DNA of 41,901 nucleotides from a virus: the UHGV virus genome UHGV-0849750; one strand, given 5' to 3'. Made by a program: the position numbers and the translations under genes. This document shows, piece after piece, positions 2,222 through 31,441 of this stretch (position 1 is its first letter; every line of letters starts with the position of its first letter). The notes beneath the pieces were generated by a model, which saw only the letters and a program-made list of their open reading frames with translations, did not search any database and had not been told where the DNA came from.

Positions 2222-3406
2222 GTGCAGACCATACAGACCACCGAGATATACACCCGCCTAGACACAGCGGTACGAGAGGGGTACACAGCTATCTCCCTCC
2301 AAGGGTCGGCACGTAGTGGCAAGACTTACAACGTGATGATATGGCTCATCCTCTACGCTCTACGAGTGCCAAGTATCAAGATAAGCGTGGTACGTGCCAC
2401 CCTCCCAGCCCTCAAGGGGTCGGTGCTGGAGGACTTCGAGTCCATTATGCGCCAGCTGGGAGTGTACAACGAGAGGCATTTCAACAAGACCGACCTCGTC
2501 TATTGGTTTCGCACACGTAGCACCATCGAGTTCTTCTCCGCATCGGACGAGCAGAGACTGAGAGGTCGTAAGCGAGACATCCTCTTCGTCAACGAAGCTA
2601 ACGAGCTAACCGCAATCCAATTTCAGCAACTCAAGATGCGTACGACACGGCTCACGATCGTAGACTACAACCCGTCATTCAGCGAGGAGCATTGGATCGC
2701 CAAAGACCTCAACAAAGACCCACGCACATACCACTTCGTCAGCACCTACAAGGACAATCCCTTTCTGGAGCAAACCGTCATTGACGAGATCGAGAGCTTA
2801 CAGCATAAGAATTTCAGCCTTTGGCAGATCTTCGGCGAGGGCAAGATGGCACAGATCGAGGGCTTAGTCTTCACCAACGTCAGCACCATCGATGCCTTTC
2901 CCGACCACATCAAGCGCACAGTCCTCGGCATTGACTTCGGCTTCACGCATGACCCGACAGCCATTGTCGAGGTCGCCTACGACAAGGAGGCACTCTACAT
3001 CAGCGAGGTCTGCTATCGCACAGAGATGCTCCAGTCAGACATCATCAAGGTGCTGAAAGGCTACCCCCGCACCAAGGTTGTCAGCGAGAGTGCCGACCCA
3101 CGACTCATTGAGGAGATATACAGAGCGGGTATCAACATCCACCCCGTCCGCAAGTACGCAGGCAGTATCGAGGCGGGTATAGCGTGGATGCTTCAGCACC
3201 CCCTACGAGTTACCGCACACAGCACCAACGTCCTCAAGGAGCTGCACAACTACGTCTACTCGCAGGACAAGGAGGGCAAGCTCCTCAACACACCGATAGA
3301 TGCCTACAACCACGCTATCGACGCCACCCGCTACGTCTGCATGACGGAGTGGATGGGGGGCGAAAAGAAGCCGATTAACCTCAGAAAACTAGCGCAAATA
3401 GTATGA
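2222..3406 (+). CDS. Terminase large subunit (394 aa; GTG start)
   Basis: Walker A-like GSARSGKTYNV. Size and position (after TerS, before portal) fit TerL with a C-terminal RNaseH-like nuclease region. Confidence 0.75.
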   Translation: MQTIQTTEIYTRLDTAVREGYTAISLQGSARSGKTYNVMIWLILYALRVPSIKISVVRATLPALKGSVLEDFESIMRQLGVYNERHFNKTDLVYWFRTRSTIEFFSASDEQRLRGRKRDILFVNEANELTAIQFQQLKMRTTRLTIVDYNPSFSEEHWIAKDLNKDPRTYHFVSTYKDNPFLEQTVIDEIESLQHKNFSLWQIFGEGKMAQIEGLVFTNVSTIDAFPDHIKRTVLGIDFGFTHDPTAIVEVAYDKEALYISEVCYRTEMLQSDIIKVLKGYPRTKVVSESADPRLIEEIYRAGINIHPVRKYAGSIEAGIAWMLQHPLRVTAHSTNVLKELHNYVYSQDKEGKLLNTPIDAYNHAIDATRYVCMTEWMGGEKKPINLRKLAQIV

Positions 3407-3783
3407 GTCAGCCACAAAGGCTCGCCAAGTACAGCGAGCGACAGCAAGCCACCAGCCAGCAGGCTATCGAGCGTGCCACGGACATAATCCAGCGTGCCAC
3501 GGGCAAGCCACGGAGCTACTACACGACACGCTCCCGCAAGGTCGAGTTTGTCGCCTATCGTGCGCTCTTCGCCTACATAGCAGTGGAGCTGGGAGCCAGC
3601 TACACGGCTGTCGGCAAAGCCCTCGGCAGGTCGCACGCCACAGTTATCCACGCTTACGAGAGCTACACCCTCTACGCCACAACGTGGGAGCCACTAGCCA
3701 CCCTCCGCAACAAAGTCATCAACCTATCCAACCCAAAACGCAATGGAAAACATCGCAGAAATACTACAGCTCGCACCTGCTGA
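3403..3783 (+). CDS. DnaA domain-IV-like HTH DNA-binding protein (126 aa)
   Basis: SRKVEFVAYRALFAYIAVELGASYTAVGKALGRSHATVIHAY aligns with the DnaA C-terminal HTH [41 protein letters not shown]. Overlaps the terL stop and the portal start. Confidence 0.45.
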   Translation: MSQPQRLAKYSERQQATSQQAIERATDIIQRATGKPRSYYTTRSRKVEFVAYRALFAYIAVELGASYTAVGKALGRSHATVIHAYESYTLYATTWEPLATLRNKVINLSNPKRNGKHRRNTTARTC

Positions 3784-5116
3784 TGCGGTCAAGAAGCTCA
3801 AGAGCAAAGCCTTCACCCCGCCAACGTGGAGCGACCTCGTCAAGGAGTACGACCCAGCACAGCACCCCGTCACCAACAAGGGCAAGTACCCCGACAAGGT
3901 CACCCCCGACGGACACATCGAGGAGGTCACACGCATCACGCTCAACTACCAGCAACTAGCGACCAAGCGTATGTCCGAGCTAGTATGCGGTATCCCCATC
4001 AAGCGCATCTACAGCCCCGAGGACGACAAGCAACGAGAGGCGAGCGAGTGCCTCGAGGCTATCTTCCAGCGCAACCGCATCGACTCGGTCAACATCGAGC
4101 GGTGCAACGCCCTCTTCAGCGGTTGCGAGATTTTGACCTTATGGTACCCGACAGAGGAGCCAAACAACCTCTACGGCTTCGACAGCGACTACAAGATCCG
4201 ATGCCAGACCTACAGCCCCCGAGAGGGCGCACAGCTCTACCCACTATTCAGCGAGGGCGACCTTATAGCCCTCAGCATCGAGACGACACGCACAGAGGAC
4301 GGGGACGACATCCGCTATCTAGACACCTACACACGAGACCAGCACATCACATACCGAGAGGGCAAGGGGGACTGGCAGGTCGACAAGGAGGAGGAGATCA
4401 AGCTCGGCAAGATACCCGCCATCTACTGCATGCGCCCCACCCCGATATGGGAGGATACGAGTAGACTGGTCTACGAGATGGAGTGGGCACTCAGTCGCAA
4501 CGGCAACTACCTCCGCAAAAATTCCAAGCCGATCTTCGCAGTCTTCGCAGACGAAGAGGTCTACTTCGGCGATGAAAAGAGCGAGAACAAGGAGTACAGA
4601 GCGGTTGTCCAATACCCCAAGGGTAGCACCGCAGGCTACCTCACGTGGAGCCAAGCTATCGACTCACTCAAATTTTACATCGCAGAGCTTCGCCAGAGCT
4701 TCTTCACCCAGCTTCAACTCCCCGACTGGTCGTACGAGAGTATGAAGTCCACCCCGATGAGTGGCGAGAGTCGCAAGCAACTATTCATCGATGCTCAGCT
4801 CAAGGTCACAGAGGAGAGCGGGCGACTGCTAGAGTTTTACGACCGTGAGGTGAGCGTGGTCAAGGCATTCCTCGCCATGCTCCGTCCCAACCTGGCGGAC
4901 GCTATCGAGGCACTCCCCGTGGAGGTCGTCATCACACCCTACCAAATCACGGAGCAACGAGACACCATCACCGAGCTACTAGCCGCCAACGGCAACAAGC
5001 CCCTCATCTCGCACCGTGAGTCTATCGAGCAACTCGGTTGGAGTACCAACGCCAGCGACACGCTCAGCGAGATCCAGCAGGAGAGTACGCTCAACGCTTA
5101 CGAGATAGCGGAGTAA
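3743..5116 (+). CDS. Portal protein (457 aa)
   Basis: Size and position directly after the terminase. Typical portal-length ORF with no other motifs. Confidence 0.6.
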   Translation: MENIAEILQLAPADAVKKLKSKAFTPPTWSDLVKEYDPAQHPVTNKGKYPDKVTPDGHIEEVTRITLNYQQLATKRMSELVCGIPIKRIYSPEDDKQREASECLEAIFQRNRIDSVNIERCNALFSGCEILTLWYPTEEPNNLYGFDSDYKIRCQTYSPREGAQLYPLFSEGDLIALSIETTRTEDGDDIRYLDTYTRDQHITYREGKGDWQVDKEEEIKLGKIPAIYCMRPTPIWEDTSRLVYEMEWALSRNGNYLRKNSKPIFAVFADEEVYFGDEKSENKEYRAVVQYPKGSTAGYLTWSQAIDSLKFYIAELRQSFFTQLQLPDWSYESMKSTPMSGESRKQLFIDAQLKVTEESGRLLEFYDREVSVVKAFLAMLRPNLADAIEALPVEVVITPYQITEQRDTITELLAANGNKPLISHRESIEQLGWSTNASDTLSEIQQESTLNAYEIAE

Positions 5117-5156
5117 CAAGCTAGAGATTAGAAGATAGATTTTAGAAGATAGAACT

Positions 5157-5582
5157 ATGCCTAGAGGAATACGCAATAATAACCCACTCAACATTCGGAG
5201 GAGTACCGACAAGTGGCTCGGACTTAGCCCCACACAGCGAGACCCTGCCTTTTTCCAATTCGTCGACCTTGTCTACGGCTATCGAGCCGCAGGCAAGCTC
5301 CTCCAAAACTACCAACGGCTCCACAAGCTCTACAACCTTAACGGACTAATAGCCCGCTGGGCACCCGCCAAGGAGAACAACACCAAAGCGTACGTGGCAC
5401 GAGTAGCCCGTGAGCTATCCACGTACGCAGGCAAGATGATAGACGGAGAGACGTACCTAGACCTCATCCACGACAAGGAGCTACTCCGCAAGACCATCAT
5501 CGCAATGCACATCGTGGAGAACGGACTGCGCCCCACAGCCAGCCAGCTAGAGGCACTAGACAAAGGGCTATCGATGCTATGA
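5157..5582 (+). CDS. Hypothetical protein with conserved N-terminal RGIRNNNPLNIR motif (141 aa)
   Basis: ORF with ACTATG start context. Function not recognisable from sequence. Confidence 0.4.
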   Translation: MPRGIRNNNPLNIRRSTDKWLGLSPTQRDPAFFQFVDLVYGYRAAGKLLQNYQRLHKLYNLNGLIARWAPAKENNTKAYVARVARELSTYAGKMIDGETYLDLIHDKELLRKTIIAMHIVENGLRPTASQLEALDKGLSML

Positions 5583-5736
5583 CCCAGTACACAGAGGAGA
5601 CACAAGACGAGCGTCAAGCACGCTACGATAAAGCGGTAAGCATCTACGAGTACAACCGCCAGTGGATGTCGCACAACGACAGCGTGAGCGCATCAATGTA
5701 CCGCACAGCCGTGCCGAGAGACATCATCAAGCGTGA

Positions 5737-6141
5737 GTGCATAAGAGCCGGAGTATGGGACAACTAGCACGCCAGATCGCAAGCGTAGCACTGCTGGCAA
5801 CACTAGCCAGTTGCGCCCCCCGCTACATCCCCGTCAACCACTACATCGAGACGGAGCGGGTCAAGGTGGAGCGGGACAGCGTCCACTACACCGACACCGT
5901 CCGCATCGCAGAGCGGGGCGACACGGTACTCGTGGAGGTGGTCAAGTGGCGGACACGCTACAAGACCGCCACGGACACGCTCGTCAAGGTAGACACGATC
6001 AAACTACCGCCCCAGCTCCTCGCCCAGCCAGCCCCCGAGCGACAGCCGTGGTGGCGCAGGTGGCTCACAGCCATCGGTGCCATCGTCCTCGTAGGAGCTG
6101 GAGCAATAGCCATCTACAAGCTAATAAGAGTACTACGATAG
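5737..6141 (+). CDS. Lipoprotein with C-terminal transmembrane helix (u-spanin-like architecture), 134 aa
   Basis: Signal peptide with lipobox LASC (…IASVALLATLASC). C-terminal hydrophobic segment WLTAIGAIVLVGAGAIAIYKLI. Confidence 0.4.
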   Translation: MHKSRSMGQLARQIASVALLATLASCAPRYIPVNHYIETERVKVERDSVHYTDTVRIAERGDTVLVEVVKWRTRYKTATDTLVKVDTIKLPPQLLAQPAPERQPWWRRWLTAIGAIVLVGAGAIAIYKLIRVLR

Positions 6142-6151
6142 CAGCCACCCA

Positions 6152-7879
6152 ATGACCCCCAAACAGTACGACCGCCAGCACATCAAGCACCTATCCGCCA
6201 TGGATAGGCGCATCGACCAGCTCTTTGACGAGGCACTCAAGAGGCTGGCGAGCTACGGCATCTTCCTCGACAAGCCCCTCGGAGACCAGCCGTTCAGTTT
6301 CGCCGACTACCCCGATGTACAGCAGGTTATTGACGGCATCTTTGAGGAGTTCCGCCAGTCGGTCGAGGTCGTTATCACCAAGGGGCTAGCGTGGGAGGAC
6401 AACCTCTCAGCCAGCAAGGCGACCGACATCGCCTCACGCTATGGCGTAGCAGTCGCACAGCAGAGGAGCCAAGCGGTCGCAGGCTTCGCACAGCGCAAGG
6501 TCGGGGGGCTAGATTTGTCCCAGCGGGTATGGAATATCACAGACACCTTTCACAAGGAGGTCGAGACCGCTATGGACATCGCTCTCCGTGACGGCACACC
6601 AGCTAACCGCCTAGCGACCGACCTCAAGCAGTACCTCAAGTACCCCGACAAGCTATTCAGACGAGTACGGGACGAACACGGACAGCTCCAGCTATCCAAG
6701 CGTGCCAAGGAGTTTCACCCAGGGGCGGGAGTGTATCGCTCCAGCTACAAAAACGCACGCAGGCTAGCCGTGACAGAAACGAACATGGCGTACCACAAGG
6801 CGGACAACGAGCGGTGGCGACAGCTAGACTTCGTCCTCGGCTACGAGGTGCAGGTATCGGGTACGAACCCCAACGTCTGCCCCCTTTGCGAGGAGCTAGC
6901 GGGTAAGTACCCCAAGGAGTTCGAGTTCGTAGGCTGGCACCCCCACTGCAGGTGCCATGCCGTGCCGATTATGGAGGACGTAGACAGCTTCCAAGCCCGC
7001 CAAGAGCTAATAGCCAACGGCAAACAGCCCCAAGCCCCCACGGGACAAGTGACCGCACCGCCGAAGAACTTCACCGACCACCTCAAGGACAACAGCGACC
7101 GCATCCAGCGAGCCAGCAAAGCAGGCACGCTCCCCTACTTCGTCCGTGACAACTACAAGGTCGGCAAAGACGGCACCCTCACCCCGACATTCAACGCCCA
7201 ATCTATAGAAGCTCGAAAGCTCGGCACGTACGGCAACAAGCTCGGACGCAAAGCAACAAAAGAGGCGCAGACAGCTCTAGCCGATCACAAGACACTAGAC
7301 AACTTCTCTGAGGCTCAAATGAAGAACTTTGAAGAGATAAACAAGGCTACAGGGTATAAGCGTGGAAAGGTGATGTCTTTTGAGGAAGCAGACAACGGAC
7401 AATCTAACATCTCACGAGACATTGAGAACTGCGCCTCCTGCGTAGTAGTACACGAGATGAGACTTAGAGGGTATGACATATCTGCCTTAAAGTACGACGC
7501 ACGAGACGGAAGCATATCAAAGCTACTATCAGCGGACACTCGTAGCATTTGGATGACCGCTAAGGGGAAAACGCCCGAATTCTCAGCTTTGATAGGCGGA
7601 GAACCAGACGATATTGTGAAAGCTATAGAAAAGCAAACCCAGCCTATCGGTAGTCGCTACAATATAGGCTGGGACATTTCAAAAGAGTTAGGACATGTCG
7701 TTACGGCAGAGAGAACTGCCAACGGATTAGTTATCTACGATCCGCAAAAAAACGCATTCTTATCTCTAGAAGAAGTTGTAAGTGATATGATGAGTGGGTC
7801 AAAGATTCAATTGTTGCGTGTAGATAGGCTACTACTAAGAAGTGATCTTTTGGCGTCCATCTCCTCCACTTTGAAATAG
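6152..7879 (+). CDS. Head morphogenesis protein of the Mu-F/SPP1-gp7 family with low-GC C-terminal Cys-His-Asp domain (MuF-type polymorphic toxin candidate), 575 aa
   Basis: MuF zinc-ribbon signature NPNVCPLCEELAGKYPKEFEFVGWHPHCRCHAVPI. The C-terminal ~190 aa (from nt ~7300) are AT-richer and contain NCASCVVVHEM...ELGHVV...IYDPQ. Confidence 0.65.
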   Translation: MTPKQYDRQHIKHLSAMDRRIDQLFDEALKRLASYGIFLDKPLGDQPFSFADYPDVQQVIDGIFEEFRQSVEVVITKGLAWEDNLSASKATDIASRYGVAVAQQRSQAVAGFAQRKVGGLDLSQRVWNITDTFHKEVETAMDIALRDGTPANRLATDLKQYLKYPDKLFRRVRDEHGQLQLSKRAKEFHPGAGVYRSSYKNARRLAVTETNMAYHKADNERWRQLDFVLGYEVQVSGTNPNVCPLCEELAGKYPKEFEFVGWHPHCRCHAVPIMEDVDSFQARQELIANGKQPQAPTGQVTAPPKNFTDHLKDNSDRIQRASKAGTLPYFVRDNYKVGKDGTLTPTFNAQSIEARKLGTYGNKLGRKATKEAQTALADHKTLDNFSEAQMKNFEEINKATGYKRGKVMSFEEADNGQSNISRDIENCASCVVVHEMRLRGYDISALKYDARDGSISKLLSADTRSIWMTAKGKTPEFSALIGGEPDDIVKAIEKQTQPIGSRYNIGWDISKELGHVVTAERTANGLVIYDPQKNAFLSLEEVVSDMMSGSKIQLLRVDRLLLRSDLLASISSTLK

Positions 7880-8101
7880 ATCTTGTTTGATTACTAACCG
7901 AACCTGCTCATGAGACAACTGAACGCCATCGGCAAAGTAAAGATGAGGGTAACCGACTTTTGCTCCAGCGGGTATGGAGCTATTGCTGAGCTGGTAAACT
8001 GCTTTGTCCATTAAGACGCCCACACGCCTTACAATGTCCCAGCCGTTTGGTATCGCAATAGGCTTTAGTCGCTCTAATACGGAGGGGTCTATCTTATTCA
8101 T
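7835..8101 (-). CDS. Small protein (88 aa), convergent with and overlapping the MuF C-terminus; candidate immunity protein
   Basis: Internal ATG MNKIDPSVLERLKPIAIPNGWDIVRRVG... at 8099-8101 (reverse). Low GC like the MuF C-terminal domain. Upstream part of the long minus-strand ORF overlaps the next + gene and is unlikely to be coding. Confidence 0.35.
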   Translation of the reverse strand: MNKIDPSVLERLKPIAIPNGWDIVRRVGVLMDKAVYQLSNSSIPAGAKVGYPHLYFADGVQLSHEQVRLVIKQDLFQSGGDGRQKITS

Positions 8102-8159
8102 AATGTATTCGTTTTCAGACACACCAAAGGTACAAACTAACAACCAATAATACAACACT

Positions 8160-8867
8160 ATGAACGACAACAACGCACCGATAGACGAAGCCTCTTTTGC
8201 CGATGGCGCACAGTGGGGCAGTATGTACAAGTCCGTCTCTGAGTGTGCAGACGGAGACGACATCACGGACAAGCCTAGCAAACGAGACAAGGACAAGGAC
8301 GAAGACGAGATCAAGTCGGAGCCAAAAGGACTAGCCATCACCACCCGCTACCTCTACAGACGAGCGTACGGAGAGAGCAAGCTCTTCGACATCTTAGGCA
8401 CCGAGCCACTGCAGTACGGCACCGCCACGCACGTACTGACGGGAGGAGACATTGATGCGCTCTCATTCCTCCAGTACATACTCAAGCATCAGTCGCTAGA
8501 GTGGTGCATCATGTCCACGTGGTGCCTAGCCACGCAAGACATACTGCAGATACGGCAGTGGGTCGAGCAGGACAAAATCAAGAAGCTAGACACCTACGTA
8601 GGTGAGAAAGTCGCCAACGCAGACCGAGTGCAGTGGATGCAACTAAACAATCTATACAGCGACCACCCGCACATCGGCAGGCTGGTAGCTTTCAAAAACC
8701 ACTCCAAGGTCTTCGTCGGTGAGGGCGACAAATTTCCCTTTGTCGTCACCTCCTCCGCCAACGTCAACACCAACCCACGACTAGAGCAGACGGTCATCAC
8801 GATAGACCGAGAGCTAGCACAATTCTACAGAGACTACTACAACCAAGTTAAGCGCAACGTACGATGA
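8160..8867 (+). CDS. Hypothetical protein (235 aa) with weak HKD-like motif (HSKVFVGEGDKFPFVVTSSAN)
   Basis: ORF with ACACTATG start. The motif resembles PLD-family HxK(x)nD...SxN but with non-canonical spacing. Confidence 0.4.
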   Translation: MNDNNAPIDEASFADGAQWGSMYKSVSECADGDDITDKPSKRDKDKDEDEIKSEPKGLAITTRYLYRRAYGESKLFDILGTEPLQYGTATHVLTGGDIDALSFLQYILKHQSLEWCIMSTWCLATQDILQIRQWVEQDKIKKLDTYVGEKVANADRVQWMQLNNLYSDHPHIGRLVAFKNHSKVFVGEGDKFPFVVTSSANVNTNPRLEQTVITIDRELAQFYRDYYNQVKRNVR

Positions 8868-10240
8868 CACAACAACCACAATACAAGGACATCAACCTCG
8901 CACAGCTCGAGGAGAACAGAGGGCAGATAGACGGGCTACCTGCCAACCCCCGCAACATACAGCCCGACAAGCTAGCCAAGCTCAAGCGGAGCATTCTCGA
9001 CAACCCCGAGATGCTCCAGCTACGAGGCATCCTTGTCTATCCGCACGGGGACAAGTACATCGTCATCGGTGGCAACATGCGCCTCCGAGCCATGGTCGAG
9101 CTGGGTATGACCTCCGCCCCCTGCATCGTTATCCCGAGCCACGTCACAGCCGACAAGCTCCGAGCCTACACGATCCTCGACAACAGCGCTATGGGTGAGT
9201 GGGACTGGCAAGCCCTCCAGCTCGAGTGGGACACCGCACAGCTTGACGACTGGGGCATTGACCTGCCCGACTTCACGGACGAGCAGGACGAGGACGCTAT
9301 CGCCAGCGAGGACGACTACGAGATGCCCGAGGAAATCGAGGAGGTCGAGACCGACATCCAGCAGGGCGACCTCATCATCTTAGAGGGGCGAGGGCTGACG
9401 CACCGCCTTATGTGTGGCGACAGCACGAGGAGCGACCACTTCGCCACGCTTATGGGAGGAGCCACTGCCGACCTCATCGTCACCGACCCACCATATAACG
9501 TGGACTATGGAGATGCGAGGGAAAGGGTCGCCAAGCTCCAAGGCGGTGAGAAGTCAAAGCACAAAGCAATCGCCAACGACAAAATGAGCGACAGCGACTT
9601 CATTGGCTTCCTCGCAAAAGTATTCAGCAACATGGAAGGCGCACTCAAAGCAGGCGGGGCTTTCTACGTATGGCTATCAGACAGCAAGCTCAACAGCAAT
9701 ATACAAGCTCTAGAACATGCGGGGCTGGGCTACCAGCAGATACTATTTTGGGTGAAGAACAACCACGTGCTGGGCTTTATGGACTACCACCAAAAGCACG
9801 AGCCGTGCCTCTACGGCTGGAAAGCGGGAGCGACGCACTATTTCATTGGCGAGCGAGACCACTCCACAGTCCTCGAGCGTGCCAAGAGCTTACTCAGTGG
9901 CAAGGCGACACAGACCGAGCTACGAGCCTGCATCAAGGAGCTGACCACAGCACTCAGTGAGGGGACAGACGTACTGCGCTACGACAAGCCACTAGCCAGC
10001 AAGCTCCACCCGACGATGAAGCCGATACCGCTCTTCGGTGAGCTAATCCGCAATTCGTCAAGACGGGGGGAGAGCGTACTCGACCCCTTTGCGGGGAGCG
10101 GGACAACCATCGTAGCGTGCCACGATATGGGGCGCAACGCTTACGCTATGGAGTACAGCCCGAGCTACTGCCAAGTGATCATCAACCGCCTCACGGAGCT
10201 TGACCCAGACCTCAAAATGATAAACGAAAGACAACGCTAG
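8864..10240 (+). CDS. ParB-like nuclease domain fused to a beta-class DNA amino-methyltransferase (458 aa)
   Basis: N-terminal ParB/Srx-like LRGILVYPHGDKYIVIGGNMRLRAMVELG. Methyltransferase motif IV IVTDPPYN followed, after ~190 aa, by motif I LDPFAGSGTT (beta-class order). Confidence 0.7.
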   Translation: MTQQPQYKDINLAQLEENRGQIDGLPANPRNIQPDKLAKLKRSILDNPEMLQLRGILVYPHGDKYIVIGGNMRLRAMVELGMTSAPCIVIPSHVTADKLRAYTILDNSAMGEWDWQALQLEWDTAQLDDWGIDLPDFTDEQDEDAIASEDDYEMPEEIEEVETDIQQGDLIILEGRGLTHRLMCGDSTRSDHFATLMGGATADLIVTDPPYNVDYGDARERVAKLQGGEKSKHKAIANDKMSDSDFIGFLAKVFSNMEGALKAGGAFYVWLSDSKLNSNIQALEHAGLGYQQILFWVKNNHVLGFMDYHQKHEPCLYGWKAGATHYFIGERDHSTVLERAKSLLSGKATQTELRACIKELTTALSEGTDVLRYDKPLASKLHPTMKPIPLFGELIRNSSRRGESVLDPFAGSGTTIVACHDMGRNAYAMEYSPSYCQVIINRLTELDPDLKMINERQR

Positions 10241-11368: not shown

Positions 11369-12442
11369 ATGCAAGAATCACTATTCAAAGAACTAGTCGA
11401 CAAGTACCTCGGGTCAGTCGTAGGCAAGGTCGTAGAGAACGGAGCCAAAACCACACCCACGCTCCTACACAAGACGATGCTCACCAACGAGTACTCGCCC
11501 GACCTCAACTGGGGTGCCAGCACGCTCAACAATAGCGTAGTCGCAGCCGATGTCGTATCGCTCGACAGCTCGCTACCCCTCAAGAGCCGTGCCACGCTAC
11601 GAGTAGCCACGGGCAAGCTCCCCAAGCTCGGTCTTAAGTATCGCAAGAGCGAGAGCGAGATCAGCGACCTCAACGTTATGATGGCACGAGGCACCAACGA
11701 GGCGACCATCGCCAGCAAGCTACTAGATGACACCGTACGAGCTATCAAGGCTATCGATGTCCGCAACGAGATTATGTTCCTCCAAGGTCTATCCTCGGGA
11801 GTCGTCCTAGTCACCGACGAGGAGAACCAAGGGACGGGCATCCGTGCCAGCTTTGGCTATCGTGACGAGAACAAAGTCAAAGCCAAGAAAGCGTGGAGCG
11901 GTGCAGGCGCAACGCCACTGACCGACATCACGGCAGTCTTTGACAAAGCCAATACCGACAGCAACCCGATCGCTCACGTCTACATCGACACCAAGACCTT
12001 CAACGAGCTAAGGTCGAGCGAGGAGGGCAAGATGCTCGGAGCCAGCTACAGCGGTCACGTAGTTACGGACAAGACGCTACTAGCCGTCCCACCCCGTGCT
12101 ACCTTCCTCGAGGCTCTCAAGGACGAGTTCGGCGCTGAGTGGCACATCGTAGAGAGCAAGTACCGCATCGAGGGACTAGACGGCACGAAGAAGCCCGCCA
12201 ACGCTTGGACGGAGGGCAACATCGTCTTCACCCCCACGGACAAGGTCGGCAGACTGGTCTACGGTACGCTTGTCGAGGAGACGAACCCCGTCAATGGCGT
12301 CGTCTACCAAAAGGCAGGCGACTACACGCTCATCTCCAAGTACAGCACCAACGACCCCGTCGAGGAGTACACGGCAGGGCAGGCTTTATGCCTCCCCGTC
12401 ATCGATGGCGCTGACGGCATCTATCTACTCACGCAGAAGTAA
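11369..12442 (+). CDS. Major capsid protein (357 aa)
   Basis: Size, position after the scaffold, and the conserved late leader. No catalytic motifs. Confidence 0.55.
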   Translation: MQESLFKELVDKYLGSVVGKVVENGAKTTPTLLHKTMLTNEYSPDLNWGASTLNNSVVAADVVSLDSSLPLKSRATLRVATGKLPKLGLKYRKSESEISDLNVMMARGTNEATIASKLLDDTVRAIKAIDVRNEIMFLQGLSSGVVLVTDEENQGTGIRASFGYRDENKVKAKKAWSGAGATPLTDITAVFDKANTDSNPIAHVYIDTKTFNELRSSEEGKMLGASYSGHVVTDKTLLAVPPRATFLEALKDEFGAEWHIVESKYRIEGLDGTKKPANAWTEGNIVFTPTDKVGRLVYGTLVEETNPVNGVVYQKAGDYTLISKYSTNDPVEEYTAGQALCLPVIDGADGIYLLTQK

Positions 12443-15749: not shown

Positions 15750-18700
15750 ATGATCCAAGGCAAAGGCGGTGAGATAGCCGCACGAGTAACCCTCGATACA
15801 TCACAGCTCGACAAAGACGTACAGCGAGCCACGGGCAAGTTTCGCCAAATCTCACAGAGCGCACAGCAGGAGAGCAACCGCATGCGGGACGCTCTCCTCG
15901 GGGTCGGCAAGGCGATGGGGATAGCCTTCTCGGCACAGCAGGCGATAGCTTTCGTCAAGCAAGTCGTGAGCGTCCGTGCAGAGATCCAAGCCCTCGAGGT
16001 ATCATTTCGCACGCTCCTCGGGAGCCAGCAAGCGAGTGCCGAGCTGATGCGACAGATGAAAGAGTTCGCAGCCGCCACACCCCTCCAGCTGGGCGACCTA
16101 GCCAAGGGAGCGCAGACGATGCTCGGCTTTAATGTCGCAGCCGAGGAGATTATGCCTATGCTCAAGGCGATAGGCGACATTTCGATGGGTGATGCGCAGA
16201 AGTTCCAGTCGCTCACGCTAGCCTTTTCACAGATGCAGTCCGTGGGTAAGCTGATGGGGCAAGACCTCCTGCAGATGATCAACGCAGGCTTCTCGCCCCT
16301 AGCCGTTATGGCGGACAAGACGGGCAAGAGTATCGGCGAGCTTAAGGAGGAGATGTCAGCGGGAGCCATTAGCGCTGAGATGGTCAAGCAAGCTTTCATC
16401 GATGCAACCAGCGAGGGCGGGCAATTCTACGGTATGCTATCGGGGCAGGGAGACACCGTCAAGGGCGCACTAGCTCAGCTATCGGGAGCCTTCACGGATA
16501 TGTTCAACGGCATCGGAGAGCAGTCCGAGGGGCTGATCAAGGGGTCGGTCAAGTCCGTGCAGTGGCTCGTCGAGAACTACGAGACGCTCGGCAAAGTCCT
16601 CGCAGGCATCATAGCCACCTACGGCACCTACAAGGCGGTGATGATGACGGTCGTAGCACTAGAGCGACTACAAGTCCAGCTCGCACTGGCTAAGATGGGC
16701 GGGCTGACCAAGTGGGGCGCACTCCTCGAGGTGCTAAAAGCAAAGCAACTAGCACTCAACAAAGCGGTGATGGCTAATCCGTATGTCCTCCTCGCTATGG
16801 CTATCGTGGGTGCTACCTACGGCATCTACAAGCTCGCCACCGCTGAGAGCGAAGCCGAGAAAGCGCAGAAGCGTCACAACGACCAAATGGAGCGGGGCAA
16901 GAAGATGCTCGACGACTACAAACAAGCCGTCAAGGAGTACCTCGACATAGTCCGTGACGACACAGCCACACAGCGTCAGCGTTACGAAGCGTATGAGAAG
17001 CTCATACGACTGATGCCCCAGCTCAAAGGCAAGAGTGTCGAGGAGATTAGCCAAATGGGAGCGGACGACCTCGAGACGCTGCTCAACAAGAACGCAGACG
17101 TCGTCCACTACCAGCAGCTCAAGAAGAACGTCAAGGAGGCAAAGGAAGAGGTCAAGGAGCTACGAGCCGTGGTCGAGGCATACGACAACGCTCCGTGGCG
17201 CAAGGGGGCAGACCTAGAGGTCGAGAAAGCCCGCAAGAAGCTATCAATACAAGAGGACATACTTCGCCAGAAAGAGCAGGAGCTAGCTGTCTATGAGGAG
17301 CAACAGCGACAAGCAGAGTGGGAGGCGAAGACGCAATCCGAGAAGGTCGCATACCTAGAGGAGCAGATCAAGATCCAAGAGCGACAGCAGAGCGTCTACT
17401 CGAGTATGCTACCCCCGCAGGCTCGACAGCTAGCTATGCAGGGCAGGATCTCAGACGCACTCAGAGTGTGCCGTGAGCAGACGGGCGGTATGGCGCAAGG
17501 ACTAGAGCAGGCAGTCCGCAATACAGCAGGCTTTGCTATACAGATAGACAAGCTCCGTGGGCAACTCGGACAGCTACAGACAGAGGACACGGGTAGGAGC
17601 TACAAGCAGGCACTAGCAGACGCCTACCAAGAGTACCAGCGCACACAGCAGGCTCTCGAGGACGCCAAGGACAAGCAAGAGACAGACTACCTAAGAGCTA
17701 AGGAGGAGGCGGAAAAAGCAGAGCAAGCCTACAAAGCACTCGGGGGCAACACCTCGCCACGCACCACAACAACCCCACAGCGTGACCGCAAAGCAGAGCA
17801 GGCGGAGGAGCGCAGACGGCTCCAGCAGTTAGCCGACCTCAAGGCAGACTTTGCCAAGCGGGAGCTACGCACCGCTATGGACAACGAGTTTGCCCTCAAG
17901 CAGGCTCGCATCTCAGCTCAAGAGGACACGATCCAAAAGGAGCTGGAGCTAGCACGGCTCCACACCGCACAGCTCAAGGAGGAGAACAAGCGACGGGAGG
18001 AGGACTGGGTCGAGGCACTCCAACGCAAGCGTGAAGAGGAGTGGAAGCTTCAGAACCCCGCCAAAGCTAAAGAGGGCTACAGCTACACGGGCGTCACCAC
18101 ACGGGACGACCTCAGCGAGCAACAGCTAGAGCAACTAGCCGAGTACGACCGCATCGCCACCGAGCAGGGCGTCAAGGCTGAGACAGAGGCTCTCGCTAAG
18201 CGACTACAGCAGTTTGAGTCCTACCAGCAAGAGCGTCAGCGCATCGCCAAGGAGTATGCCGATAAGGAGCGAGACCTCCACAACGCTGACGGCTCGCTCC
18301 GTGAGGGCGTGACCGAGGCGAACCTTGACGAGCTGAAGCGACAGAGTGACGAGGCACTAGCCCGCATCGACGAGACGTGGGCAGAGCGTGAGGAGACATA
18401 CCAGCAGTGGATGACCGACATCGCCACGATGTCCATCGCACAGCTCGAAGAGGAGCTGAGACGAGTACAGCTACTCCTCGCTAAGGCACAAATAGAGGGA
18501 CGGGACGACAAGAGCGTGGCGGTGATCCGTACGCAAGTCGAGCAACTCAGTAAGAAGCTCGGAGAGGTACACCAAGAGGCACAGCGCACGGGACAGAGCT
18601 TTGCGGACTGGAGCCGTGCCACCGAGACGCTACGAGCCACACGGGACGAGCTAGACGGCATCGCTGAGAGCATACGACCGCTCAGCGACAGCCTCGCAGA

Positions 18701-20024
18701 CGCTATCCAAGACGTGGCGGGCTTAGCTACACCCGTCATCGGCATCATCGGCAGTATCGGCAAGTTTGCCGAGATGACCTCCAAAGGCATCGAGTCTACC
18801 GCCACCGCCACACAGCGGGCTATCGCTATGGCGGAGCGTGGCACCGTACTACTCACCGTCCTATCGGGAGCGTTACAGTTAGCCACCAAGGTCGCACAGC
18901 TCTTCAGCAGGGATAAGCGCCACGAGAAGAACATCGAGGAGCTAGCGGACAAGATAGCCGACATTCAGTGGAGCCTCGACCACTGGGGCTGGGACAAGCT
19001 CGAGGAGAGCGCAGGCAAACCGCTAGAGCGCATCAACGAGTGGCTCGCAGAGGCACGACTCAAGTCGCTGGCAGCTGCAGCCGCCACGGGAGACTATGCC
19101 AAGTCGTGGCAGGTGATGCAAGACATAACAGCAGGCACAGAGCAGGCTGGACGACGGCTCGCTGACGCTTACATGCAAGCGGACTATATGGCGGGCAAGC
19201 TCCTCGGCTCCGACCGCTACTCCGAGGCACGCAAGCAACTCGACCTTATGGGTCAGCAGGTCGCACTCATACGCCAGCAGGCGGAGCAAGAGCGCAAAAA
19301 GAAGAAGTCAGACCAAGATAAGCTCGACAGCTACGACCAGCAGATCGCAGAACTGACAGCCAAGATGGCGGAGAAGATCGACAACATGCTGAGCGACCTC
19401 CTCGGGGGCGATGCTATCCAGCTAGCCGACAAGCTCGGCAACGCCCTCTTCGATGCATTCAGCAAGGGCGAGGATGCGGCTAAAGCGTTTGACAAGTCAG
19501 TCAACGACATCATCAATAATATGGTCAAGAAGCTCATCATTCAGCAGTTCCTCGAGAAGCCGATCCAAGAAGCGATCAATAAGCTCAAGCAGGCGGTCAC
19601 AGCAGATGGCGAGCTGAACATGGACGAGATGTACGCTAGCCTCGGAGCAATATACGACGACCTAGCCAAGATCGGAGACAACGCTGGCAAGATCCAAGAG
19701 GTCTACGAGGGCATCATCAAGGGTCTCGGCATTGACCTCGAGGACACACTCACAGGACAGCGCAAGGGCATAGCAGCCGCCAGCCAAGATAGCATCGACG
19801 AGCTGAACGGACGAGCCACCGCCATACAGACGCACACCGCTATGATAGCGCAAGGCACCGCCCGCCTCACGACCTTAGCGCAAAGCACCTTTGACCAGCT
19901 CGTAGAGGTCGGTCGTATGGTCAAGGAGGGCAACGCCACACGCCAGCGCATCGAGACCTCCACCGCCACCATCGCCACCAAGGTACGAGACTTCGAGACC
20001 TACGGCATTAAAATGAAGAGATAA
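15750..20024 (+). CDS. Tail tape measure protein (1424 aa, coiled-coil rich)
   Basis: Longest ORF. Highly helical, Q/E/A/K-rich, with glycine-rich hydrophobic segments. Follows G/GT. Confidence 0.8.
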   Translation: MIQGKGGEIAARVTLDTSQLDKDVQRATGKFRQISQSAQQESNRMRDALLGVGKAMGIAFSAQQAIAFVKQVVSVRAEIQALEVSFRTLLGSQQASAELMRQMKEFAAATPLQLGDLAKGAQTMLGFNVAAEEIMPMLKAIGDISMGDAQKFQSLTLAFSQMQSVGKLMGQDLLQMINAGFSPLAVMADKTGKSIGELKEEMSAGAISAEMVKQAFIDATSEGGQFYGMLSGQGDTVKGALAQLSGAFTDMFNGIGEQSEGLIKGSVKSVQWLVENYETLGKVLAGIIATYGTYKAVMMTVVALERLQVQLALAKMGGLTKWGALLEVLKAKQLALNKAVMANPYVLLAMAIVGATYGIYKLATAESEAEKAQKRHNDQMERGKKMLDDYKQAVKEYLDIVRDDTATQRQRYEAYEKLIRLMPQLKGKSVEEISQMGADDLETLLNKNADVVHYQQLKKNVKEAKEEVKELRAVVEAYDNAPWRKGADLEVEKARKKLSIQEDILRQKEQELAVYEEQQRQAEWEAKTQSEKVAYLEEQIKIQERQQSVYSSMLPPQARQLAMQGRISDALRVCREQTGGMAQGLEQAVRNTAGFAIQIDKLRGQLGQLQTEDTGRSYKQALADAYQEYQRTQQALEDAKDKQETDYLRAKEEAEKAEQAYKALGGNTSPRTTTTPQRDRKAEQAEERRRLQQLADLKADFAKRELRTAMDNEFALKQARISAQEDTIQKELELARLHTAQLKEENKRREEDWVEALQRKREEEWKLQNPAKAKEGYSYTGVTTRDDLSEQQLEQLAEYDRIATEQGVKAETEALAKRLQQFESYQQERQRIAKEYADKERDLHNADGSLREGVTEANLDELKRQSDEALARIDETWAEREETYQQWMTDIATMSIAQLEEELRRVQLLLAKAQIEGRDDKSVAVIRTQVEQLSKKLGEVHQEAQRTGQSFADWSRATETLRATRDELDGIAESIRPLSDSLADAIQDVAGLATPVIGIIGSIGKFAEMTSKGIESTATATQRAIAMAERGTVLLTVLSGALQLATKVAQLFSRDKRHEKNIEELADKIADIQWSLDHWGWDKLEESAGKPLERINEWLAEARLKSLAAAAATGDYAKSWQVMQDITAGTEQAGRRLADAYMQADYMAGKLLGSDRYSEARKQLDLMGQQVALIRQQAEQERKKKKSDQDKLDSYDQQIAELTAKMAEKIDNMLSDLLGGDAIQLADKLGNALFDAFSKGEDAAKAFDKSVNDIINNMVKKLIIQQFLEKPIQEAINKLKQAVTADGELNMDEMYASLGAIYDDLAKIGDNAGKIQEVYEGIIKGLGIDLEDTLTGQRKGIAAASQDSIDELNGRATAIQTHTAMIAQGTARLTTLAQSTFDQLVEVGRMVKEGNATRQRIETSTATIATKVRDFETYGIKMKR

Positions 20025-30628: not shown

Positions 30629-31441
30629 TTATGCGAAGTAAGCGATGCTGGCACGGACACGCCACAGCCCCACAACGTGGGAGATAGGTATCTCAAAGTC
30701 CTCGTACCGTTCATTGTCCGAGCGGGCTATCCAGTACTCCCTGCGCTTTGCGGGGTCATCGTGCTTGTACAGACGCTTGACGTAGTCCGTCACAGCCTTG
30801 GAGTCGGGGTCATCGGGGTCGTGCAGGACGATGGCAAAAGCTTCGCCAAAGGGTATCGACAACGGCTCATCGAGTCGAAACCACACACGAGAGACAGCCA
30901 GCCGTGACCCCTGCGGAAAGGTCGGAGCCATCGAGTCGCCCACCACGGGAACAATCATATCAGCCCGCACATCGGGCATCGTCCAGACGCTCTCCACCTC
31001 GTTCATCGTCTCCGCAAGCGGATAGCCATCATTGCCCCCCTTGAAAGGCTCGGAGAACATCGGTATCAGCTCCACCCCTAGCTCATCAGCCAGCGCACGA
31101 GCCTTCTCCAGCTTGTCCAGCGTGAACTCTGTCGGCTCCGTCCGTGGATCGTGACCGCTCAGCATATCGCCCTCGCCAGTGAGGACATCATCATCGCCAG
31201 TGAGGACATCATCATCGCCAGCCAACATCTCGCCACTCCCATTACTGAGCCAAGAAGAGTTCAAACATTTGAACGCTTTTGCGACAAGATCCATATAGTA
31301 TGGAGTTGCCTCCTTGTACCCATTTTTAATTCCAGTGACAACAGAGCGACCAACGCCTATCTTCTCGGCAAAGTCCGCTTGATTGTACGCTAAGCCTGCG
31401 GAAATCACATATTCCATAGCTTTCACAAATCTGTCATTCAT
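30629..31441 (-). CDS. CI-like repressor: N-terminal HTH plus C-terminal S24 (LexA-like) autopeptidase domain (270 aa)
   Basis: HTH ADFAEKIGVGRSVVTGIKNG. S24 Ser motif VVGDSMAPTF and Lys in YVKRLYKHDD. Linker carries tandem GDDDVLT repeats. Confidence 0.7.
   Translation of the reverse strand: MNDRFVKAMEYVISAGLAYNQADFAEKIGVGRSVVTGIKNGYKEATPYYMDLVAKAFKCLNSSWLSNGSGEMLAGDDDVLTGDDDVLTGEGDMLSGHDPRTEPTEFTLDKLEKARALADELGVELIPMFSEPFKGGNDGYPLAETMNEVESVWTMPDVRADMIVPVVGDSMAPTFPQGSRLAVSRVWFRLDEPLSIPFGEAFAIVLHDPDDPDSKAVTDYVKRLYKHDDPAKRREYWIARSDNERYEDFEIPISHVVGLWRVRASIAYFA

Follow-up and report, generated by a model that had tools for sequence, protein, structure and literature searches.

We examined a head-protein gene at positions 6152..7879 (+ strand) of UHGV virus genome UHGV-0849750, together with a short open reading frame (ORF) that converges on its 3' end; the whole stretch analysed, 41,901 nucleotides long, is referred to here as the window. 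The gene encodes a protein of 575 aa. It probably specifies a polymorphic toxin in which a MuF-type head protein, presumably delivered by the virion, carries a C-terminal Tox-PL1 domain, with the 88-aa protein encoded at 7835..8101 (- strand) as cognate inhibitor and the two parts held in one exchangeable cassette. An initial annotation, made from the sequence alone, had suggested a polymorphic toxin and immunity pair, and comparison of sequences supports this well: C-termini are swapped between related phages, and the 88-aa gene is paired with the toxin domain, co-varies with it and is also found orphaned. The same annotation held that the domain matches no toxin domain that can be named and may be a new effector. 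The first statement is wrong, as the domain scores 46.5 bits against Pfam PF15644 (gathering cut-off, 24.1), and the second is not supported, because both the toxin domain and the architecture are already known: MuF-Tox-PL1 fusions in prophage packaging modules were described by Zhang, de Souza, Anantharaman, Iyer and Aravind in 2012 (PMC3482391). The locus is a new example of that known system, and it is neither a new kind of system nor a new toxin fold. What is less ordinary is the unannotated family of the small protein, the conserved convergent, overlapping and self-promoted layout, and a lineage-specific junction element.

The exchangeable part of the MuF gene (7198..7879, + strand; aa 350-575 plus the stop codon) comprises a linker and the Tox-PL1 domain and was delimited by the Pfam match, the catalytic signature and a break in homology. 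PF15644 ("Papain fold toxin 1, glutamine deamidase") aligned with aa 426-533 over positions 2-112 of the 114 in the model, with an E value of 9.4e-12. Tox-PL1 is defined by an NC-H-DxQ signature (Zhang et al., PMC3482391), and the Cys, His and Asp that the initial annotation had noted in this order belong to it. They lie in the motifs NCASC (aa 426-430), GHVV (aa 514-517) and YDPQ (aa 529-532), and the predicted catalytic residues are N426/C427 (nt 7427-7432), H515 (nt 7694-7696), D530 (nt 7739-7741) and Q532 (nt 7745-7747), all conserved at 98-100% in 128 aligned homologous domains. C430, which is 81% conserved across the family, pairs with C427 as a CxxC (nt 7427-7441). On this sequence evidence the domain is classed as a Tox-PL1 papain-fold Cys-His-Asp enzyme, predicted to act as a peptidase or deamidase.

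An exhaustive HMMER search with the domain returned 827 representatives (50% identity) at an E value of ≤1e-3. The 148 best-scoring of these were looked at more closely, and 58 of them were long (at least 450 aa). All 58 long representatives match PF15644, and a MuF core was detectable by phmmer in 42 of the 58. The N-termini joined to PF15644 homologues were MuF, Phage_min_cap2, VG15, LPD3 and Peptidase_S78; versions of Tox-PL1 are also known from type II, III, VI and VII secretion systems (PMC3482391). PADLOC and NCBIfam gave no match for the toxin domain, and sequence searches of the PDB with the C-terminal domain, a 25-sequence profile, a whole-protein profile and the 235-aa protein encoded next to the cassette gave no significant match.

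Sister phages carry other C-termini on closely similar cores. The proteins of three such phages from IMG/VR (L004, L005 and L006) are 84-91% identical to that of the window over aa 1-349/394 and then continue into unrelated C-termini, which are weakly CdiA_C-like in L004 and represent two further types, with no family assigned, in L005 and L006. The corresponding C-terminus of L001 is a Tox-PL1 domain 26% identical to that of the window. The head-module DNA of the sister phages is about 80-92% identical. Homology at the DNA level breaks at nt 7193-7197 for L001, L004 and L006, right after the conserved coding motif LPYFVRDN...TLTPTF (nt 7130-7195) that forms the 3' end of the core and marks the recombination boundary, and at nt 7153 for L005; it restarts at 8119-8180. 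The C-terminus is therefore not an invariant part of the protein in this phage group, and the horizontally exchanged domain proposed in the initial annotation is borne out by the break at nt 7197 and by the unrelated C-termini of the sister phages. The drop in GC content that had been claimed for this region is also real and beyond chance. GC is 0.453 for 7198-8118, whereas the MuF core has 0.597 and the window as a whole 0.549, and GC at third codon positions is 0.40 in the C-terminal part of the gene against 0.77 in the core. The segment is the sole part of the 41.9-kb window in which 921-nt windows fall below a GC of 0.47, and 0.37% of sliding windows are as GC-poor.

In L005, the MuF C-terminus (aa ~360-550) and a convergent 87-aa ORF (5650-5913) lie within 4001-5913 and overlap at their stops by 4 nt; neither matches Pfam. 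A guess made by eye that this C-terminus is RelA/SpoT-like was dropped, as Pfam gave no confirmation.

The 3' boundary of the cassette is formed by a junction element, CAAAGGTACAAACTAACAACCAATAATACAACAC (8125..8158, + strand), which is followed by ATGAACGA... and is repeated in the sister phages. With its flanks (8119-8180), the element reaches the start codon and the first 7 codons (MNDNNAP) of the next gene on the + strand. The window holds a single copy, where zero is expected by chance, and each locus of the sister phages has 2-3, with every boundary between variable genes marked by one. The possibility that the element is widespread was considered and rejected; in IMG/VR it is confined to this phage lineage. 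Remnants of displaced toxin C-termini lie between junction-element copies in L001 (6064-6612) and L006 (7020-7567) and look like recombination scars between those copies. Within the window itself, we saw no displaced C-terminus or orphan immunity copy. Taken by sequence, the reading of the toxin C-terminus and the immunity gene as one exchangeable cassette with polymorphic-toxin anatomy is well supported. As a separate observation, the remnants in L001 and L006 are of the L004 type and form in-frame fusions with the N-terminus of a conserved protein of 122-128 aa that has a HELSH motif.

The minus-strand ORF at 7835..8101, to which the initial annotation had drawn attention, is a real conserved gene specifically tied to the Tox-PL1 C-terminus, and its conservation and this pairing make it the candidate cognate immunity (inhibitor) gene. 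Its 3' end and that of the toxin gene share 45 nt (7835-7879), which takes in the last 15 codons of each (on the toxin side, 14 sense codons and the stop). A 169-aa form starting from a GTG at 8344, given in a mechanical ORF list, was rejected; the 88-aa form is the likely gene because most homologues are 88 aa long with the same Met and because a promoter-like motif lies inside the extension. A single-sequence search found 34 homologues and a profile search found 62 clusters. All are from Bacteroidales where the source names an organism, the named ones are all "hypothetical," and none has a Pfam domain. Protein sequence itself is kept down to 36-41% identity, with W21, D22, G50, P52, H53, L54 and Y55 invariant. 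The AlphaFold2 model of the protein (mean predicted local distance difference test score [pLDDT], 71) has an alpha-beta3-alpha arrangement, and its last 13 residues, which coincide with the gene overlap, are disordered. Neither NCBIfam nor PADLOC gave a match, four homologues matched no Imm family at an E value of ≤10, and the GenBank phage collection, searched at both the DNA and the protein level, gave nothing for the region or the 88-aa ORF.

At all 19 toxin-bearing loci examined, the Tox-PL1 C-terminus has a convergent homologue of the 88-aa gene running into it, with overlaps of 33-54 nt across the convergent loci. The paired loci are found in Porphyromonas (metagenome-assembled genomes [MAGs] L015-L017 and L019), in L023, in Bacteroidales KA00251 (L018), in Prevotella (L021), in Alloprevotella (L022) and in L020 and L041-L044; paired remnants lie on metagenome contigs (L012-L014) whose 88-aa protein is recorded by NCBI from Porphyromonas vaginalis. 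Identities of toxin/immunity protein to the window pair run 96/99, 94/95, 95/93, 90/89, 86/77, 81/49, 61/36, 57/41 and 52/36%. L018 (692-2014) is a natural chimera with its breakpoint inside the toxin domain: identity to the window is 94% over toxin residues 1-120, 58% over residues 121-191 and 49% for the small protein. The small protein thus co-varies with the C-terminal third of the toxin, which carries His515 and Asp530. Of the 5 C-terminus types seen in this lineage of phages, 4 have a small ORF that converges on the toxin gene and abuts its stop.

The 88-aa family also occurs where little or no phage is left. Orphan immunity copies lie beside mere scraps of MuF or toxin sequence in L008-L011 (P. 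uenonis), L039-L040 and L045-L046. Elsewhere, with the prophage decayed, the pairs form 2-4-gene islands among housekeeping genes (L012-L014, at about 4300-7100; L043/L044, at 2640-5070), consisting of a full-length or shortened MuF-Tox-PL1 gene plus the convergent small gene. The neighbours of these islands are murC/murG and dihydroorotate dehydrogenase genes in one case and DoxX and triose-phosphate isomerase genes in the other, with no other phage structural genes. The persistence of the islands could reflect addiction-like retention.

In more distant MuF-Tox-PL1 phages (L024-L038; 31-35% domain identity), there is a same-strand ORF of 78-88 aa with an acidic tail (about 3578-3892), which overlaps the toxin stop by 8-11 nt at the loci inspected. 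By sequence, this ORF represents a different candidate immunity family, with no detectable homology to that of the 88-aa protein. A G-x-P-x-x-Y pattern seen by eye had hinted that the same-strand 88-aa ORFs of L024-L038 and the convergent 74-aa ORF of L001 might be homologous to the 88-aa protein, which we do not claim: BLASTP gave no alignment, and the hhalign probability was 0.6%.

A further ORF of 108-136 aa with a C-terminal hydrophobic helix is found at several loci, where it lies immediately upstream of the immunity homologue in the same orientation. It does not occur in the window, and copies were seen at L019 (1385-1711, - strand), L020 (1028-1369, - strand), L022 (1061-1471, - strand) and L043 (2640-2981, + strand); the L019 copy has no Pfam match.

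The consensus of the Bacteroidetes -7 promoter element is TAnnTTTG. A sequence that fits it, TACCTTTG (8125..8132, - strand), begins 31 nt upstream of the 88-aa gene's ATG and is the putative promoter of that gene. TAnnTTTG was present 26-34 nt upstream of the convergent small ORF at 15 of 17 loci, including loci whose DNA farther upstream differs and also L001 and L006, whose convergent ORFs are unrelated, against a background in the window of 0.26 per kb per strand. Judged by this motif, the 88-aa gene seems to have a transcript of its own that runs antisense to the late operon.

The core of the protein (6152..7197, + strand; aa 1-349) was assigned to the MuF/SPP1-gp7-type minor head proteins. 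It matches the PHROG families for head morphogenesis (phrog_7625, E = 1.4e-62) and minor head protein (phrog_115, E = 5e-33), and aa 185-343 match phrog_16625 ("Bxa ADP-ribosyl transferase") at an E value of 2e-74. The gene lies in the packaging/head module, two small genes 3' of the portal gene. The core contains the Cys/His cluster pointed out in the initial annotation, with CPLC at aa 243-246 (nt 6878-6889) and HPHCRCH at aa 263-269 (nt 6938-6958). These PHROG matches and the position just downstream of the portal gene support the head-protein core that had been proposed, and because of them we class the ORF, on sequence grounds, as a divergent protein of the MuF/gp7 type.

Several points weigh against the reading of the locus as a virion-delivered toxin with its inhibitor. 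The core stays under curated cut-offs, with 16.7 bits for PF04233 (cut-off, 29.6) and 34 bits (E = 3e-8) for TIGR01641 (cut-off, 39.65). Curated models do recognize some of the homologues: 7 of the 58 long ones match PF04233 (best E value, 2e-18) and 2 of the 58 match PF06152 (Phage_min_cap2). L023, with a toxin domain 86% identical to that of the window, reaches 24.5 bits for PF04233, still under 29.6. The AlphaFold2 model of the toxin domain, for which 9 homologues were used, is of low confidence (pLDDT, 59.9). The 88-aa protein belongs to no known immunity family (no Pfam Imm match at an E value of ≤1, Imm35 included), and its model resembles no solved structure. Co-variation of adjacent overlapping genes, the L018 pattern among it, is also expected from linkage alone. 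In the literature searched, we found no experiment showing that a Tox-PL1 domain is active as part of a MuF protein. Moreover, a processing-peptidase role for MuF-linked Tox-PL1 was also considered by Zhang et al. (PMC3482391), and 3 of the 58 long homologues carry an extra CdiA_C domain, which would suit a releasing peptidase.

The strongest competing explanation, which we regard as unlikely although it deserves serious consideration, is that the Tox-PL1 domain is an injected host-takeover or anti-defence effector and not a competition toxin. It would cleave or deamidate a host defence or regulatory protein to the benefit of infection or of the lysis-lysogeny decision, the 88-aa protein being a dedicated inhibitor or chaperone by which it is held inactive in the producing cell. 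MuF-fused enzymes have been proposed to act as early effectors delivered with the DNA (PMC5512222), and low-toxicity peptidase or ADP-ribosyltransferase (ART) domains may steer the lysis-lysogeny decision, according to Jamet et al. (PMC5576092). A relative of the core within the phage lineage is annotated as a carrier of the Bxa ADP-ribosyltransferase. The nearest structural neighbours of the low-confidence toxin model are the host-manipulating effectors AvrPphB, SpvD, Cif and OspI, at 8-15% identity; since the pLDDT of the model is 59.9, these matches support the fold class only, and not the activity. These papain-fold type III/IV effectors are, moreover, directed against eukaryotes, unlike the proposed toxin of the window. 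Against this explanation stand the small-gene orphans kept after toxin loss and the toxin/immunity pairs that survive as phage-free islands, both of which are easier to explain if the enzyme harms cells that lack the small protein, and which therefore favour real toxicity over a milder effector. Fast cassette turnover with strict pairing is, in addition, a hallmark of toxin-immunity arms races.

We think it improbable that the 88-aa gene is an unrelated moron or regulator expressed in lysogeny, serving in superinfection exclusion or as an antisense element and hitch-hiking in the cassette. Such a role would agree with the lack of a recognizable family or fold, with a promoter motif of its own, which is typical of morons, with the occurrence of some copies in non-phage contexts, and with the convergent 45-nt overlap, which could permit antisense interference with the late transcript. 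However, all 19 toxin-bearing loci pair the gene with this toxin subfamily and it is never combined with the lineage's other C-terminus types, whose small ORFs are different ones; in L018, it diverges together with the C-terminal third of the toxin; and it is the protein sequence, not just the DNA, that is kept to 36-41% identity with seven invariant residues. About as improbable is a processing or releasing peptidase (in head maturation or in self-cutting of MuF) that is no effector and has a functionally unrelated small ORF beside it: beyond the points of Zhang et al. and the CdiA_C domains, it draws on how very common the domain is on MuF-type proteins and on the auto-processing of its linker by the papain-fold contact-dependent inhibition toxin StbD-CT (bioRxiv 10.64898/2026.05.07.723447), yet near-identical phages replace the domain with unrelated C-termini, so that it is dispensable for morphogenesis and a pure processing role is unlikely, the strict co-varying pairing and the orphan small genes are left unexplained, and auto-processing and toxicity can coexist.

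SPP1 gp7 is a minor head protein that sits at the portal and is ejected with the DNA. For the polymorphic toxin that we favour, a few copies of the MuF protein would likewise be located within the capsid, at the portal, and be expelled along with the DNA. This would bring the enzyme into the cytoplasm of the infected cell, where it would modify or cleave a host protein. The convergent 88-aa gene would encode the cognate inhibitor. Being antisense to the late operon and behind its own putative Bacteroidetes-type promoter, it could be expressed in a lysogen whose late genes are off. The inhibitor would guard lysogens against toxin from sibling phages, and the producer cell during induction. The cassette may be swapped by recombination between the LPYFVRDN...TLTPTF coding motif and the repeated junction element of about 35-60 bp.

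A broader proposal is offered tentatively, at a likelihood clearly below that of the toxin-inhibitor pair itself. Bacteroidales MuF-toxin phages may have a distinct cassette, in which the immunity gene is antisense, overlaps the toxin gene at the 3' end, has its own promoter in the junction element and would thereby be expressed in lysogeny without depending on the late operon. The 88-aa protein might found a new Tox-PL1 immunity family, and pairs or immunity genes might outlive the prophage as chromosomal islands, acting as addiction-like modules or as acquired protection from toxins that phages deliver.

Like the fusions of Zhang et al. (PMC3482391), the protein joins a MuF core to a C-terminal Tox-PL1 domain with NC-H-DxQ, and its gene belongs to a packaging module that also holds terminase, portal and capsid genes; the hosts that Zhang et al. 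list include Bacteroidetes. Unlike in that study, in which Imm35 is the only immunity family associated with Tox-PL1, the small gene here is not Imm35 and falls in no annotated family; it is also convergent with and overlaps the toxin gene instead of lying downstream on the same strand. The locus likewise resembles the MuF polymorphic toxins of Jamet et al. 2017 (PMC5576092; for APK domains, see PMC12226406) in its conserved MuF N-terminus, variable toxin C-termini and adjacent small ORF, a small putative immunity ORF being what typically follows MuF toxins (PMC5576092). Further features in common with those systems are the temperate nature of the phage and an abundance in the human gut. Jamet et al. 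stress Firmicutes and nuclease, ART and RelA/SpoT-type domains, in contrast to the Porphyromonas setting here and the antisense putative immunity gene with its own promoter motif; their main text makes no mention of papain-fold or deamidase domains, Bacteroidetes or gene orientation. Related by its core is the Bxa-type MuF-ADP-ribosyltransferase of Bacteroides phages (phrog_16625), in which the C-terminus is an ART instead of Tox-PL1. The strength of that match indicates that, in related head proteins of Bacteroidales phages, the C-terminus is another enzyme.

An experimental precedent close by is StbD-CT, with its small immunity protein StbI, a papain-fold (C39) antibacterial peptidase toxin that cleaves GyrB and ParE (bioRxiv 10.64898/2026.05.07.723447). 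As in the window, the enzyme is a C-terminal Cys-His-Asp domain of a polymorphic toxin; StbD-CT itself acts in the bacterial cytoplasm and is neutralized by its small cognate StbI. Both have a second Cys near the catalytic one (C183/C187 in StbD-CT, C427/C430 here), and by this analogy one may speculate that the CxxC serves as a redox switch. The target of StbD-CT is not transferable to the toxin of the window because the sequence relationship is marginal.

By its gene content, the window is the genome of a temperate siphovirus-like phage. It encodes the large terminase TerL (2222-3406), portal (3743-5116), major head protein (11369-12442), tape measure protein (15750-20024) and repressor (30629-31441), and also a primase/helicase. 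Its best genome matches are uncultured Porphyromonas MAGs from the human gut, and its host is Porphyromonas (Bacteroidales). The two small genes that separate the portal and MuF genes lie at 5157-5582 and 5737-6141 (both + strand). The first encodes a 141-aa product that matches the endolysin-annotated PHROG phrog_873 (E = 1e-35), and the second a 134-aa product with hydrophobic segments at the N- and C-terminus and no family match.

A 235-aa ORF at 8160-8867 (+ strand) separates the toxin cassette from a ParB-methylase gene and is a second variable insert. Its first 7 codons (MNDNNAP) are those that begin the ParB-methylase gene in the sister phages, and its N-terminus is acidic and of low complexity. 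Its sole match is the PHROG "endonuclease" family phrog_16945 (E = 1e-9), with none in Pfam, NCBIfam, PADLOC or the PDB. The ORF is shared with L005 (91% DNA identity) and occurs also in L017. The ParB-methylase gene (8864-10240, + strand), which is the conserved gene 3' of the variable region, encodes a fusion of a ParB_N-like domain with an N6/N4 DNA methyltransferase (PF01555, E = 1.4e-31; PADLOC MTase_II, E = 1e-77). On the bacterial chromosomes of L008 and L012-L014, shortened ParB_N remnants lie beside the toxin/immunity remnants.

MuF toxins are a predicted, widespread route by which temperate phages deliver enzymes; experimental tests of it are few, with none for the Tox-PL1 class or for Bacteroidales. 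The locus described here is a compact pair, a 190-aa domain with an 88-aa partner, and chimeras of the L018 kind, together with the orphans, could be used to map specificity. If the proposed organization is true, an antisense, self-promoted immunity gene would explain how lysogens are immune while the late genes are off, and the repeated junction element would explain the exchange of cassettes.

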